DNA of 64,000 bases from Gemmatimonadota bacterium (GTDB taxonomy: Bacteria > Latescibacterota > UBA2968 > GCA-2709665): contig JAPPJY010000013.1 in assembly GCA_028874335.1 (NCBI GenBank), forward strand, positions 6,526 through 70,525, read 5' to 3'. The notes beneath the pieces are model-generated. The model did no database searches. It was not told the DNA's origin and saw only the letters and a list, made by a program, of their open reading frames with translations. A program made the translations under genes and the position numbers. Below, one piece after another: positions 12,178 to 59,126 of this stretch. Each line of letters starts with the position of its first letter. Position 1 is the stretch's first letter.

Positions 12178-12256
12178 GATGCTCGTCTCTCTTTTCGGCT
12201 CATCGCTGACAGATGCCATAGAAAATACGCAATCCACCTTCTCTGTCAAGGATTCA

Positions 12257-12447
12257 CCTCAATTCCGCAAAAGCCGTAACGCGGCACCGCGACGAAACCT
12301 TTCGAAACGGGCCAAAATGGTCATCATGAAGCACGTTTTTTCCGTTCACGTCCAGTGTCCTGGTGTATCCTGGTAATCAGCAGTCTAATCGCCGTTATTA
12401 ACTCGCACATATTCGAACTAACATCCCCGAAAAATGACGAATCAAGG
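12257..12447 (+). mobile_element. MITE-like element, family A, copy 1
   Basis: ~90% identical by manual alignment (about 20 mismatches in ~190 nt) to 48426-48615. Imperfect TIR CCTCAATTCC...GGAATCAAGG. Flanked by the direct repeat TTCA (12253-12256 and 12448-12451). Confidence 0.85.
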
Positions 12448-12479
12448 TTCAGCATTGGAAAAACACAAGGAGCGCGAGG

Positions 12480-18174: not shown

Positions 18175-19344
18175 ATGGATGAACTCGCTCTGAAATACGG
18201 ATGTAACCCGCACCAGAAACCCGCAAGGATATTCAACCGGCACGGTCCGCTTCCCTTCAGCGTCCTCAACGGTGCGCCCGGGTATATCAATCTGCTGGAT
18301 GCGTTCAATTCCTGGCAGCTGGTGAAGGAACTGAGGGAGACGCTCGACACACCCGCCGCGGCTTCGTTCAAACACGTCAGTCCCGCGGGCGCCGCCATAG
18401 GCGTGCCACTGAACGACGATCTCAAGAAGGCATATTTTGTGGAGGGCATGGACCTTTCGCCCCTGGCCGTCGCGTACGCCCGCGCCAGGGGCGCCGACCG
18501 GCTTTCTTCGTACGGGGATTGGGCGGCCCTGAGCGACCCGGTTGACGTGGCCACCGCCAGACTCCTTCGCCGCGAAGTATCCGACGGGGTCATTGCGCCG
18601 GGCTATCATCCGGAAGCGCTGGATATACTGAGAAAGAAAAAAGGAGGCGCCTACCCGGTCCTTGAAGTCGATCCCGATTACAAGCCCATGGAAACAGAAT
18701 GTCGTGAGGTATTCGGACTCACCTTTGAACAGCAATGCAATGACCTGGATGCCGGCCCGGAGATGCTCGGGAACGTCGTTACCCGACGAAAGGAAATCCC
18801 CCCGGACAAAGCCCGGGATATGCTGGTGGCCACCATAACGCTCAAGTTCACCCAGTCGAATTCCATCTGTTTCGCATTGCAGGGCCAGGCCATCGGCGTG
18901 GGGGCCGGGCAGCAGAATCGGCTTGCGTGTACGGATATTGCCGCCGGCAAAGCCGAAGCCTGGTTTCTGCGCCAGCACCCTGCCGTGCTGAATCTGGATT
19001 TCAGAAAAGGCGCGCGGCGGCCGGAAAAGATAAACGCCATCGAACTGTATCTCAAAGGAGACATGACTCCCGAAGAACAACGTGCATGGCGCGTTTCGTT
19101 CCGCAAGGCGCCGCCGCCCTTCGGCGATGCGCCCAGAAGGGAGTGGCTGCAGCGTCTCGGGGGTGTAACACTGGGCTCCGACGCGTATATCCCCTTCCGT
19201 GACAACATCGACCGCGCCGCCCGTACCGGCGTGGAATACGTCATCCAGACCGGCGGTTCCGTACAGGACGACGTCGTGACCGCGGCCGCGGATCAATACG
19301 GCATGGTCATGGTCAATACCGGGATCAGGCTCTTCCATCATTAG
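18175..19344 (+). CDS. AICAR transformylase-domain protein (PurH C-terminal half only)
   Basis: MDELALKYGCNPHQ...FKHVSPAGAA...ICFALQGQAIGVGAGQQNR...GSDAYIPFRDNID...QTGGSVQD matches the AICARFT core. No MGS/IMP-cyclohydrolase N-domain is present. Confidence 0.8.
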   Translation: MDELALKYGCNPHQKPARIFNRHGPLPFSVLNGAPGYINLLDAFNSWQLVKELRETLDTPAAASFKHVSPAGAAIGVPLNDDLKKAYFVEGMDLSPLAVAYARARGADRLSSYGDWAALSDPVDVATARLLRREVSDGVIAPGYHPEALDILRKKKGGAYPVLEVDPDYKPMETECREVFGLTFEQQCNDLDAGPEMLGNVVTRRKEIPPDKARDMLVATITLKFTQSNSICFALQGQAIGVGAGQQNRLACTDIAAGKAEAWFLRQHPAVLNLDFRKGARRPEKINAIELYLKGDMTPEEQRAWRVSFRKAPPPFGDAPRREWLQRLGGVTLGSDAYIPFRDNIDRAARTGVEYVIQTGGSVQDDVVTAAADQYGMVMVNTGIRLFHH

Positions 19345-19465
19345 CCGGGCGCCCATTTTCCATGAGAGACTTTTTTCAATTTTCTGCCGCCGGACGGAAG
19401 CCAGTCTATCCGAAGGCGACTTCAGCGTATCACGACGAATTGTCGCAAAATGCGACGGTTTTCCA

Positions 19466-19494
19466 TTGACCGCCGCGCGAACGGGCATTATATT
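19466..19494 (+). promoter_or_regulatory. Candidate sigma-70 promoter (TTGACC-N17-TATATT)
   Basis: -35 at 19466-19471, -10 at 19489-19494, upstream of the sigma factor gene. Confidence 0.4.
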
Positions 19495-19634
19495 AACCGC
19501 TCGACGCGGTTGTTTTTTTGCAGTATAGGGCGACCCATTTGCGGACTCCCGGCGTCGAATACCATCGACAGGCTTCCTGTTGAGAGAACGGGTGTACCTG
19601 AGGCACACACCATCGCATATGGAGAACTGGGGAC

Positions 19635-20462
19635 ATGAAAGCCAGGATTTCGGACGGCGACGCGGACATCTATCTGCGCGACATCCGAAAATTCACGCCG
19701 CTGAGCAAAGAAGACGAAGCGGACGTGATCGCGGACGCTCAGAGGGGTAACCGCAGAGCCCTCGATCGTCTCATCACCGCCAACCTGCGATTCGTGGTCC
19801 GAATCGCCCGCGAATACAGCGGACGGGGGCTGCCGCTGTCCGACCTGATTGCAGAGGGCAATCTGGGCCTGATCCGGGCCACACGGACATTCGATCTTGC
19901 GCGTGGGCACAAATTCATCACCTACGCGGTCTGGTGGATCCGGCAGGCCATTCTGTCGGCGCTCAATCGGTGTGTACATCCTGTTGTGTTCCCTGTAAAT
20001 CAAATCGACGATCTCGACGTAATCAACAGGGCCAAAAACGCCCTTTCGCAGTCGCTGGGCCGGATTCCCGATCTGGGCGAACTGGTCGAGAAAACCGGCA
20101 TGCCCCTCAGAAGGCTGCGACGCGCCCTCGAGGCCAACCGAACCACCGTGTCTCTCGACAGTCCCACGCACGACGGTTCCTCGGGAGTATACGCCGATAC
20201 ACTGCCGGCACAGGATTCCCGACCAGACGAGCAGTTTGAGGATGCCCGCATCAAGAAGCTGCTCAAGGAATGCCTGAACCGATTGCCCCAGCGCGAAGCA
20301 AGGATATTGAGTCTGTATTTCGGTCTTGACTCGGATAAGCCGGAGCCACTCGAACGTATCGGGAAGCGCCTGCAGATCAGCAGGGAGCGGGTCCGGCAAC
20401 TCAAAGACAGGGCGCTTGGCAGACTCCGGCTCAATTTTGTACAGGAAAACGTGATTTCGTAG
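19635..20462 (+). CDS. Sigma-70 family RNA polymerase sigma factor (short, group 2/3-like)
   Basis: Region 2 [12 protein letters not shown]...[12 protein letters not shown]...[13 protein letters not shown]. Region 4.2 [18 protein letters not shown]. Confidence 0.9.
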
Positions 20463-20483
20463 ACAGAAAAAGCGGCACCAACA

Positions 20484-20524
20484 AATAAAGCGGGCGGCCT
20501 GCATGGCCGCCCGCTTTATTTGTA
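20484..20524. terminator. Bidirectional rho-independent terminator
   Basis: AATAAAGCGGGCGGCC-TGCA-TGGCCGCCCGCTTTATTT between the convergent sigma factor and protease genes. Confidence 0.85.
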
Positions 20525-23230: not shown

Positions 23231-23301
23231 TATAGCCGCTCCATCCAGGAATTGCAAGACCGGCTTTTACCGGCATCGAACGTACCTTTTCATCCGTTTA
23301 A

Positions 23302-23516
23302 CCTCGATTCGCAATTATCCGGGGACAAGAATGTCGAATATATACTGAAGAACAAGGGCGAATTGGCGTCAAGCGTCCCAGATAATTGAGGTCACTGGAC
23401 GTCAAGGGAAATTTCATCCATTCGAACGACCTCAATGCCCGGTTTCGCACCGACACCTTCTGTGCCTTTTGTGCTTTTTGTGGTAAATTCAGCGGTTGTT
23501 TTATTTCGAATTGAGG
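23302..23516 (-). mobile_element. MITE-like element, family A, copy 4 (diverged)
   Basis: Alignable end to end with 58072-58272 (shared blocks ACCxxGATTCG, GGTCACTGGACGT, CTTTTTGxGG.AATT). Ends CCTCGATTCG...CGAATTGAGG. Flanked by TTAA (23298-23301) and TTAA (23517-23520). Confidence 0.65.
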
Positions 23517-23541
23517 TTAATTCCGAGATAAGGGGTTTTCA

Positions 23542-25542
<2,001 letters not shown>

Positions 25543-48122: not shown

Positions 48123-48425
48123 CCCTTTACCCTCAATGAATGAGACCGCGATCGGCGGCAGCGTATGGAATCAGTCCTTGCCCGCCCTGCCCCGCCCGGC
48201 GTGATCCGGCGCCTCCTGACGCCGTCAGTGCCTGAACCGCGGGACACACAGAATATACCCAATGCTCCGGCTGAATCAACCCCGCGCAAACCCAACTTGA
48301 CATTACGGTGTTCCGTCCCATAAATTCCTCACCATTCTTGGGCCGATGTAACACAGGAACACAAACCCGGGACAGGCGGCCAATCTCCGATCCCTTACCC
48401 GTGACGGGTTTCCGGGAGGCATTAG

Positions 48426-48615
48426 CCTCAATTCCGCAAAAGCCGCAACGCGGCACCGCGACGAAACCCTTCGAAACAGGCCGAAATGGTCGTCATGAAG
48501 GACATTCTTTCAGTTCACGTACAGTGTCCCGGTGTATCCTGGTAATCAGCAGTTTAATCGCCTTTTTAACTGACACATATTCGAATTAACGTCCTCGAAA
48601 AATGAGGAATCAAGG
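48426..48615 (+). mobile_element. MITE-like element, family A, copy 2
   Basis: See copy 1. Flanked by TTAG (48422-48425) and TTAG (48616-48619). It ends 6 nt before the SDR start codon. Confidence 0.85.
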
Positions 48616-48621
48616 TTAGAT

Positions 48622-56866: not shown

Positions 56867-58071
56867 TGCTCAACAGAGATGAAGCCGCACGGACGTGGCC
56901 CGATGCCAGGGGACACTTCGGACCCTACGGCGGGCGCTATGTGCCGGAGACGTTGATGCCGTTGCTCGAGGACCTGGAATCAGCCTACCGCGACGCGAGT
57001 GACCGTCCGGATTTCCGCGAGGAACTGGACCGTTATCTCAGGGAATTTGTCGGAAGGCCCACGTCACTCTATTTCGCACAGCGACTGACCGAAGAACTGG
57101 GCGGGGCCAGAATCTATCTGAAACGGGAGGACCTCGCCCACACCGGCGCGCACAAGATAAACAACACGATGGGGCAGATTCTGCTTGCCAGGCGCATGGG
57201 AAAAACACGGATCATCGCCGAAACGGGCGCCGGGCAGCACGGTGTGGCGACGGCGACCGTAGCTGCGATGTTCGGACTGAAGTGCGAGATTTACATGGGC
57301 ACCGAGGACATGGACCGGCAGGCGTTGAATGTGTTCCGGATGCGGCTCCTGGGCGCCAAAGTAACCGGCGTGGAATCGGGAAGCAGGACGCTCAAGGATG
57401 CGATCAACGAGGCAATCCGGGACTGGGTGACGAACGTGGACGATACGTTCTATATTTTCGGATCCGTCCTGGGACCTCACCCGTATCCGATGATCGTACG
57501 GGATTTTCAACGGGTGATCGGGGTGGAGACCCGCGCGCAGATCCTGCGGGCCGAAGGCCGGTTGCCGGACTGTCTGATCGCATGTGTCGGCGGCGGCAGC
57601 AATTCGATGGGGCTGTTTCACGCGTTTCTGGACGATGCGGACGTGCGCATGATCGGCGTCGAAGCGGGAGGCCATGGCATTGCCTCCGGCGACCACGCCG
57701 CCCGGTTTCAGGGAGGAGATCTCGGCGTGTTGCACGGGGCGAGGATCTACCTCCTGCAGGACGAGGACGGGCAGATCGCACTGACCCATTCGGTATCGGC
57801 AGGCCTGGACTATTCCGGCGTGGGCCCCGAGCACTGTCTCCTGCGGGATGAGGGCCGGATCGAGTATGCGTATGCAACCGACGACGAAGCCCTGAAGGGG
57901 TTTCAACTGTTGAGTCGCACGGAGGGTATCATTCCAGCACTGGAAAGCGCGCACGCGATCGCGCACGTGTCGAAAGCGGCGCCGGCAATGGACAGGGATG
58001 CTATAATCGTGGCGAATCTCTCAGGCCGCGGCGACAAGGACGTACAGCAGGCGGCGAAGTACCTGGACTGA
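56866..58071 (+). CDS. trpB: Tryptophan synthase beta chain
   Basis: GTG at 56866 in ORF 56626..58071. [24 protein letters not shown] (PLP Lys), [21 protein letters not shown]. Confidence 0.95.
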
Positions 58072-58272
58072 CCATGATTCGTATGTTTTCGGGTACGTTA
58101 ATTCGTATATGTGCAAGTAGATAAAGGCGATTAAACTGCGGATTACCAGGATAAACCTGGTCACTGGACGTGAACGGAAGAAATGGCCTACCTGACAACC
58201 ATTTCGGCCCGTTTCGGAAAGTTTCGTCGCGGTGCCGCGTTGCGGTTTTTGCGGAATTAAGGCTAACAGCCC
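58072..58272 (-). mobile_element. MITE-like element, family A, copy 3
   Basis: Reverse complement aligns end to end with copies 1 and 2. Flanks are CTGA (58068-58071, containing the trpB TGA stop) and CTAA (58273-58276). Confidence 0.85.
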
Positions 58273-58313
58273 GTTTGGTTTACCGGGCCGGGTCGAATCA
58301 CGGAGTTGTACTG

Positions 58314-59126
58314 ATGACGAGGATCGGGAGACGGTTCGAAGCGTTGAAGAAAGCGGGAACGACCGGGTTCGTCGCCTATATCACGGCCGGAGACCCGGAT
58401 ATGGCAACCACCCGGAAATTCGTACCGGAGCTGGAAAGGCGCGGGGTGGACATACTTGAGCTGGGCGTTCCGTTCTCCGATCCGCTGGCGGACGGACCTG
58501 AGATCCAGGCGGCCTCGCAGCGGGCGCTGAGGCATCGCGTTTCCATCGGCGACGTCATGGACCTGGTGGCGGTTCTGCGGCAGGAGTCCGAGATACCCAT
58601 TGTCCTGTTTACGTATTTCAATCCGATGCACCGCTTCGGTCTCAAACGGCTTGTCGACAGAGCGGCCGAAGCGGGGGTGGACGGCATTCTGGCGCTGGAT
58701 CTTCCACCGGAAGAGGCGGGGGAGTACAAGGGTCTGATGGAGAAACGGGGACTGGATACGATTTTTCTCATCGCGCCCACCAGCCGCGAGGACCGCATTC
58801 GACGAATCGCGTCTCACACCAGCGGATTCGTGTATTACGTGTCCCGCACCGGCGTGACCGGGGAGCGGGACCGCCTGGAGGAAACACTGGGCGAAAGGGT
58901 GGCGGCAATCCGGCGACACACCTCGCAACCGGTAGCTGTCGGATTCGGGATTTCGACGCCCGAACAGTCCGGTGAGGTTGCGGGTTACGCGGATGCGGTT
59001 GTGGTTGGCAGCGCAATCGTGCGACGGATCGCACAGCGGCAGTCCGACCCGGATCTCGTTTCCCACATCGGGGATTTCGTCGAAGAACTGGTGCAACCGC
59101 TGAAGGGAGCATCCGATGGATCTTGA
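58314..59126 (+). CDS. trpA: Tryptophan synthase alpha chain
   Basis: Met 58314. FVAYITAGDPD, LELGVPFSDPLADGP, GFVYYVS..GVTG, GFGIS. Confidence 0.95.
   Translation: MTRIGRRFEALKKAGTTGFVAYITAGDPDMATTRKFVPELERRGVDILELGVPFSDPLADGPEIQAASQRALRHRVSIGDVMDLVAVLRQESEIPIVLFTYFNPMHRFGLKRLVDRAAEAGVDGILALDLPPEEAGEYKGLMEKRGLDTIFLIAPTSREDRIRRIASHTSGFVYYVSRTGVTGERDRLEETLGERVAAIRRHTSQPVAVGFGISTPEQSGEVAGYADAVVVGSAIVRRIAQRQSDPDLVSHIGDFVEELVQPLKGASDGS

Follow-up and report, generated by a model that had tools for sequence, protein, structure and literature searches.

Family A, a 191-bp non-coding repeat of an uncultured member of the Latescibacterota, is very probably a non-autonomous transposon (MITE) that bears IS1380-type ends, is mobilised in trans at TTAR sites and arose within a single genus of this phylum. 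Its copies lie between duplications of a 4-bp target and are present or absent at orthologous loci of related genomes, and their ends match those of IS elements that encode a transposase of the IS1380 family. From sequence comparison, we infer that this transposase mobilises family A. The window, i.e., the whole stretch of 64,000 nucleotides that was analysed, corresponds to C84:6526-70525 of a 5.43-Mb metagenome bin of 96 contigs with 59% G+C (assembly label G000).

The repeat family, its targets and its gene context

The window carries four copies of family A, one of them followed by a short additional segment:

12253..12451, + strand: copy 1, minor subfamily; core 12257-12447 (nhmmer), TTCA duplication at 12253-12256 and 12448-12451
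23298..23520, - strand: copy 4, long variant of 215 bp; core 23302-23516, TTAA/TTAA duplication
48422..48619, + strand: copy 2, minor subfamily; core 48426-48615 (nhmmer), TTAG/TTAG duplication
58068..58266, - strand: copy 3; core 58072-58262 (nhmmer), 191 bp, + strand flanks CTGA and CTAA
58267..58297, + strand: additional ~30 nt that separate copy 3 from the ancestral trpA leader, beginning CAGCCCGTT

A sequence-only reading of the window had described these four repeats, and the profile search recovered all of them where it had placed them, except that its upper limit for copy 3 (58272) was 10 nt too high and made a 201-bp copy of a 191-bp one. The flanking 4-mers listed above are those that it gave. 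The window copies could be aligned end to end, and its estimate of ~20 differences between copies 1 and 2 agrees with their 89.6% identity over 193 nt. Copy 4 corresponds to the 191-bp form only over the 3′ 147 model positions (23302-23449) and has a different 5′ module (CCACAAAAAGCACAAAAGGCACAGAAGG); the ~215-bp variant to which it belongs has this 3′ module in common with the 191-bp form.

All four copies sit close to a start codon, as had been claimed, at distances that range from 6 to 51 nt and not from 6 to 41 nt. Copy 1 occupies the divergent spacer upstream of an amidohydrolase-like gene (start 12480), the insertion point being 29 nt from the ATG. A gap of 6 nt separates the core of copy 2 from the ATG (48622) of a short-chain dehydrogenase gene, and copy 4 lies 25 nt from the ATG of acs at 23542. 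Copy 3 is found between trpB and trpA, 51 nt (not 41) from the trpA ATG at 58314, and the TGA stop codon of trpB (58069-58071) lies within its duplicated target (the CTGA flank); the corresponding codon of relatives is TAG, TAA or TGA. The extra ~30 nt beside copy 3 start with CAGCCCGTT, as does the window's “family C” element at its left end, and this segment is probably the remnant of an earlier insertion into the trpB-trpA spacer, judging from its sequence. The spacer (window 58263-58313) is a repeated landing site: it received family A and the ~30 nt with a family C end here, and in G010 (C5:113100-113640) it holds a different insert of ~370 bp with a family C end (CAGTCCGTTGATAAAGTCGC), finishing GAATCGAGG. 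The trpB-trpA spacers of the other sampled relatives measure only ~10-60 nt.

The sequence-only reading had proposed to count the repeat genome-wide, and further copies are indeed present: blastn returned 194 matches and nhmmer 196 in the assembly, i.e., ~0.6% of the genome. Among the latter, 144 are full length (176-192 bp; 69 in + and 75 in - orientation) and 41 are limited to the 3′ part. The unit runs over 191 bp from CCTCAAT to GAATCAAGG between two TTAR sites, with terminal sequences CCTCAAT(T/C)C... and ...CGAATCAAGG. When 135 copies were aligned with 40 nt of flank on either side, conservation started and stopped sharply at the TTAR-CCTCAAT junction on the left and at the AATCAAGG-TTAR junction on the right. 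The terminal inverted repeats are imperfect, CCTCAATTC... and ...GAATCAAGG matching at 8 of 10 positions, and no ORF conserved across subfamilies was found. Two main subfamilies, of 82 and 32 members, are accompanied by several minor ones; copies 1 and 2 of the window fall into the smaller main subfamily.

Five 5′-truncated copies (C78:~69634, C36:~30747, C50:~79351, C26:~54579, and C34:~7912 of G000) are all preceded by ...GGGGCCGGGGGGAGAGGTC, a sequence that often follows CTACCGTCT-like repeats and that also flanks an IS1380 element on C90 (L031:2603-2640); it looks like another repeat family interrupting, or targeted by, these elements. Tandem or nested arrangements of family A occur in the same assembly at C39:30495-30886, C87:33885-34273, C95:165950-166270, C54:218102-218488, and C80:71926-72306, either as two units head to tail or as a copy ending GAATCCTGG followed directly by a partial unit.

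The preferred landing sites are TTAA and TTAG (TTAR), and the 4-bp flanks are true target-site duplications. The 4-mers on the two sides agree completely in 84 of the 135 aligned copies, against 38 ± 4.5 (maximum 57) after shuffling. The fourth base of the target agrees on both sides in 118/135 copies (G/G 63, A/A 55) and disagrees in 17, ten of which are G/A or A/G, and the rare targets TTCA, TACA, and TCCG are likewise duplicated. The attribution of these repeats to a non-autonomous transposon, made from four copies, is thus confirmed for the 4-bp duplications, the occurrence of both orientations and the lack of coding capacity alike.

Family A is restricted to one genus in the genomes sampled: it was detected in 15/15 genomes of the genus and in 0/26 genomes of the rest of the family and order, and across the phylum in 15/168 genomes (1 of 49 genera), the 153 others being without it. 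First-look counts of candidates per genome extend from ~11-19 (G011, G007, G013) to 118-189 (G004, G002, G010, G000). Among the matches listed for an exact 20-mer of the core, only metagenome bins labelled Candidatus Latescibacterota, Gemmatimonadota or “uncultured bacterium” appeared, the Gemmatimonadota-labelled ones among them being RHO1_bin_28 and RHO3_bin_7.

Gene context was evaluated with our own gene call (4042 genes, 85% coding). Between co-directional genes the orientation of the copies is random (39 with the genes, 45 against), and 25 further copies lie between divergent and 20 between convergent genes. Of 129 copies, 45 have the stop codon of a neighbouring gene within their duplicated target, 19 of them at the CCTCAAT end and 26 at the CAAGG end. 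Copies can sit on stop codons because TTAR includes TAA or TAG on one strand and TAA on its complement, and the duplication regenerates the stop. The stop-bearing share is 35% of copies vs. 9.6% of “tolerable” TTAR sites genome-wide, the latter being a crude null, and selection could produce such an excess without any targeting; within MITE-bearing spacers, which offer only ~2 TTAR sites each, 38 stop-codon cases were counted vs. 35 expected.

Some copies might have been co-opted, the TTCACG-N15-TATCCT block or the purine-rich ends (GAGG/AAGG) acting as a portable promoter or ribosome-binding site, or the element as an insulator between genes, which we regard as improbable. The block TTCACGTCCAGTGACCTGGTGTATCC is the best-conserved part of the element and is common to all subfamilies, copy 2 brings an AAGG to 6 nt before an ATG, and copy 1 parts its gene from any ancestral promoter, which makes read-through or a start of its own necessary. 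However, the copies show no orientation bias, a spacer of 15 nt is poor for sigma-70, no promoter match extends across the copies, and recent amplification from few source copies can explain the conservation. A search for sigma-70-type promoters and terminators, based on an E. coli-type consensus that may not suit this phylum, found none inside copy 1 and no site common across copies. Copy 1 having been inserted 29 nt ahead of the ATG, a promoter that the amidohydrolase-like gene had before the insertion must lie upstream of the copy, and the simplest reading would be that the whole MITE is read through as a 5′ UTR from such a promoter. The analysis yielded no positive evidence of function; we infer that the copies are functionally neutral, although single loci may show a regulatory side-effect.

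Probable IS1380-family partner elements

Members of the IS1380 family are ~1.5-2 kb in size, contain one ORF, begin their inverted repeats with CC and duplicate 4-5 bp of target. The partner of family A was traced through its transposase. Only two proteins of the assembly match PF01609, and both belong to the IS1380 family, with NF033539 scores of 211.3 and 382.4 bits (cut-off 180) and PF13701 scores of 107 and 509 bits; the Pfam domains on the IS1380 transposase are DDE_Tnp_1_4 and DDE_Tnp_1, not the piggyBac domain. The sequence-only reading had suggested looking for an IS with the same termini, and one was found on C27: an IS1380-family element of 1552 bp whose single intact ORF encodes a 482-aa transposase (211 bits, NF033539) and which extends from CCTTATTTCCGCAAAAA to TTTGATGAATCAAGG between two TTAA copies, with CCTT.../...AAGG ends. 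Its right end has also been given as GATGAATCAAGG or TGATGAATCAAGG, then TTAA. In size, single ORF, CC-starting repeats and duplication, the C27 element agrees with the IS1380 family. Its flanks (C27:128013-130464) have no orthologue in 13 of the 14 genus relatives, which places the IS in a strain-specific region.

The ends of the MITE (CCTCAATTCCGCAAAAG...TGACGAATCAAGG, window copy 1) match those of the C27 IS at 14 of 16 positions on the left and 12 of 13 on the right. No likeness was detected beyond the ends; it is confined to the 9-17 terminal bases, and the interior is unrelated, from which it follows that the MITE is not a simple deletion derivative of the IS, its putative mobiliser; this limited match counts against the partnership. 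Pairs of exact end 9-mers lying 0.3-4 kb apart had been considered as a route to the partner and gave chance pairs only, because the IS ends differ slightly.

A second intact IS1380 element lies at C90:~18860-20505 of G000 (L031:959-2602); it encodes a transposase of 451 aa (382 bits, NF033539), has different ends (CCTGAATAATTCAT) and is flanked by a TTAG/TTAG duplication. Only a handful of C90-type ends occur in the genome, hence no obvious MITE of this element. The IS elements of relatives, present in up to 7 copies, have ends of the CCTCAAT or the CCTTGATTCCGCAAAAA type: that of G001 has a perfect 17-bp repeat, CCTTGATTCCGCAAAAA, and a CTAA duplication, and those of G007 (7 copies) and G012 (5 copies) have ends CCTCAATG(C/T)GAAA and TTAG-type flanks. 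Each end of the MITE matches a variant of the IS inverted repeats, the left end being of the CCTCAAT and the right end of the CCTTGAT type, both from one inverted-repeat family; that the two ends correspond to different IS variants counts against the partnership. Transposase genes were found in 9 of the 15 genus genomes and none was detected in the MITE-rich G004, G008, G010, and G014, whose MITEs are therefore orphans. Across the genus, the copy numbers of IS and MITE are not correlated, G007 combining 7 IS copies with few MITEs, which likewise counts against the partnership.

These elements also bear on the transposase that the sequence-only reading had pointed to. IS5-group elements make 4-bp duplications at YTAR, and the 4-bp TTAR duplication of family A would fit mobilisation by an IS5-family transposase. 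However, proteins with the IS5-type domains PF13586 or PF13359 are absent from the assembly (a draft bin of 96 contigs, from which further transposases may be absent), PF01609 is represented there by the transposases of IS1380 elements alone, and the ends of the MITE match IS1380 elements of the genus that themselves make TTAA and TTAG duplications. The IS5 attribution is accordingly abandoned as very unlikely.

According to the IS1380-based model that we prefer, the ends of the MITE are variants of the 17-bp inverted repeats of IS1380-family elements of the same genus, and the DDE transposase encoded by the latter would bind them in trans. Insertion at TTAR would proceed by a 4-bp staggered cut, the repair of which would leave the 4-bp duplication. 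The family would have originated in one genus, diversified into subfamilies with a common 3′ module and been amplified to very different extents by species, with recent movement in the genome of the window. Copies would survive only where they are harmless, i.e., in short intergenic spacers, and an insertion exactly on a stop codon would regenerate the stop, such that about one third of the copies abut a stop codon. The IS1380 family is known for loose end recognition and mobilises flanking DNA through sequences that resemble its inverted repeats (PMC9330008), which makes the mobilisation of an element that shares only its termini plausible.

Presence and absence at orthologous loci

Comparison with relatives of the same genus revealed clean presence/absence polymorphism at orthologous loci, and not the universal presence with compensatory changes that had been named as the alternative when the repeats were first described. 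Judged by the geometry of BLAST gaps, the site of copy 1 is empty in 13 of 14 relatives and filled only in G005, and residue-level alignment of four relatives (G008, G002, G006, and G011) shows a single TTCA at the empty site. Copy 3 is an insertion unique to this genome, the trpB-trpA spacers of all 14 other genus genomes being without it. In the reverse direction, the flanks of 83 elements at loci of relatives were mapped to this genome, which yielded 34 informative sites. Eighteen of these are empty here, 15 of them with a flank overlap of exactly 4 bp, as expected from a duplicated target. Ten are filled here, and the identity of the element (89-99.5%) is about that of its flanks, which indicates inherited, ancient insertions.

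Some movement was recent, as near-identical copies occur in unrelated flanks: five copies are at least 99% identical (99.5-100% for some) in such settings. The median nearest-neighbour identity among the copies of this genome is 96%. Two copies of G000 that are 100% identical, at C32:134797 and C19:147281, have flanks that are 86-94% identical, a pair probably due to duplication of the region or to a contig from a variant strain, the bin having an estimated contamination of 7%.

The TTCA site of copy 1 is occupied by different subfamilies in the two genomes in which it is filled. In G005 (C113:46400-46800), it holds a major-subfamily element with 94% identity to the major consensus, and in this genome a minor-subfamily element with 93% identity to the minor consensus; identity is 80% between the two elements and ~91% between their flanks. 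Independent insertions into a hot spot, or the replacement of one copy by another, would both fit. The empty site reads GTCAAGG-A-TTCA, which resembles the right end of the element itself followed by its target. Compared with G008, the representative of a different species, the 3′ 470 nt of trpB (window 57600-58070; C1:2075476-2075945 in G008) are 100% identical, the neighbouring trpA is 96% identical, and the two sides of the copy 1 region are 97% and 92% identical. Species of the genus may have recombined recently to give this pattern.

Signs of a conserved RNA structure were sought in several ways. An Rfam search of the copy 1 region with E-values up to 1 returned no match. When folded singly, neither the consensus nor copy 1 on either strand was more stable than its shuffled counterparts (z of 0.29, 0.68, and -0.54). 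Joint folding of 55 non-redundant copies produced only two trivial hairpins for the + strand and no structure for the - strand, and an all-pairs search for conserved helices gave only short chance complementarity. One candidate, a GGACGT-N11-ACGTCC hairpin, was rejected, being intact in only 47 of 135 copies and bearing uncompensated A.C and G.A changes in the rest. That family A is an immobile structured cis-regulatory RNA or 5′ leader (riboswitch or attenuator) conserved upstream of genes, as the position of all four window copies 6-51 nt from a start codon might suggest, can hardly be true in view of the clean empty sites with target duplication, which refute it, the random orientation, the many copies at stop codons or between convergent genes, and the lack of an Rfam match, a fold signal or compensated stem changes.

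Relation to known elements and significance

Family A is a textbook MITE in every feature tested and belongs to an ordinary kind of mobile DNA. Its partners resemble the known members of the IS1380 family (ISEcp1, IS1247, ISPme1, and IS1380) in their single DDE transposase matching NF033539 and PF13701, their length of ~1.55 kb, their inverted repeats of ~17 bp starting with CC and their 4-bp duplications. On the other hand, the MITE itself contains no transposase and has an unrelated interior, and the named members duplicate 4-5 bp; IS1247, for instance, is 1672 bp long, with inverted repeats of 16/13 and a direct repeat of 5 bp (PMC3281130). Like Correia/NEMIS of Neisseria, RUP of Streptococcus, ERIC, Nezha, and TIMEs, family A is short (100-400 bp), non-coding, intergenic and multicopy. 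It shares with classical MITEs the terminal inverted repeats, the target duplications, the lineage-restricted bursts and the probable use of a transposase in trans, and differs from them in that its repeats are short and imperfect, it has no long hairpin or detectable regulatory signal, its partner is IS1380 and its host an uncultured lineage of Latescibacterota. Our literature search found no paper on IS1380-derived MITEs, on a strict TTAR target for IS1380 or on repeats in Latescibacterota.

The likeness extends to eukaryotic piggyBac, which also makes 4-bp duplications at TTAA-type sites and has ends starting with CC; IS1380 transposases have served as its prokaryotic outgroup (PMC10813416), and duplication of TTAA is the hallmark of piggyBac. 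In contrast to piggyBac, family A targets TTAR and not strictly TTAA. It is conceivable, if rather unlikely, that the IS1380 elements of this genus, together with their MITEs, form a prokaryotic counterpart of piggyBac in mechanism too, with strict TTAA/TTAG insertion, a 4-bp stagger and precise excision. If so, the perfectly clean empty sites would be explained, and the TTCA site with two subfamilies could reflect excision with subsequent re-insertion, or homing to a site (GTCAAGG-A-TTCA) that looks like the end of the element.

Our general understanding of transposons is unchanged by these results. They constitute a well-supported case in which IS1380 transposases, bacterial relatives of piggyBac, would drive bursts of MITEs at TTAA-like sites. 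They also illustrate how insertions into a target with a built-in stop codon can occupy gene ends harmlessly. A single element accounts for ~0.6% of this genome and for a large part of its short intergenic spacers, which matters for the prediction of promoters, leaders and operons in the genus: the trpB-trpA spacer and the regions upstream of acs and of the amidohydrolase-like gene are mostly MITE. The insertions also provide markers for separating strains and species of this uncultured lineage.
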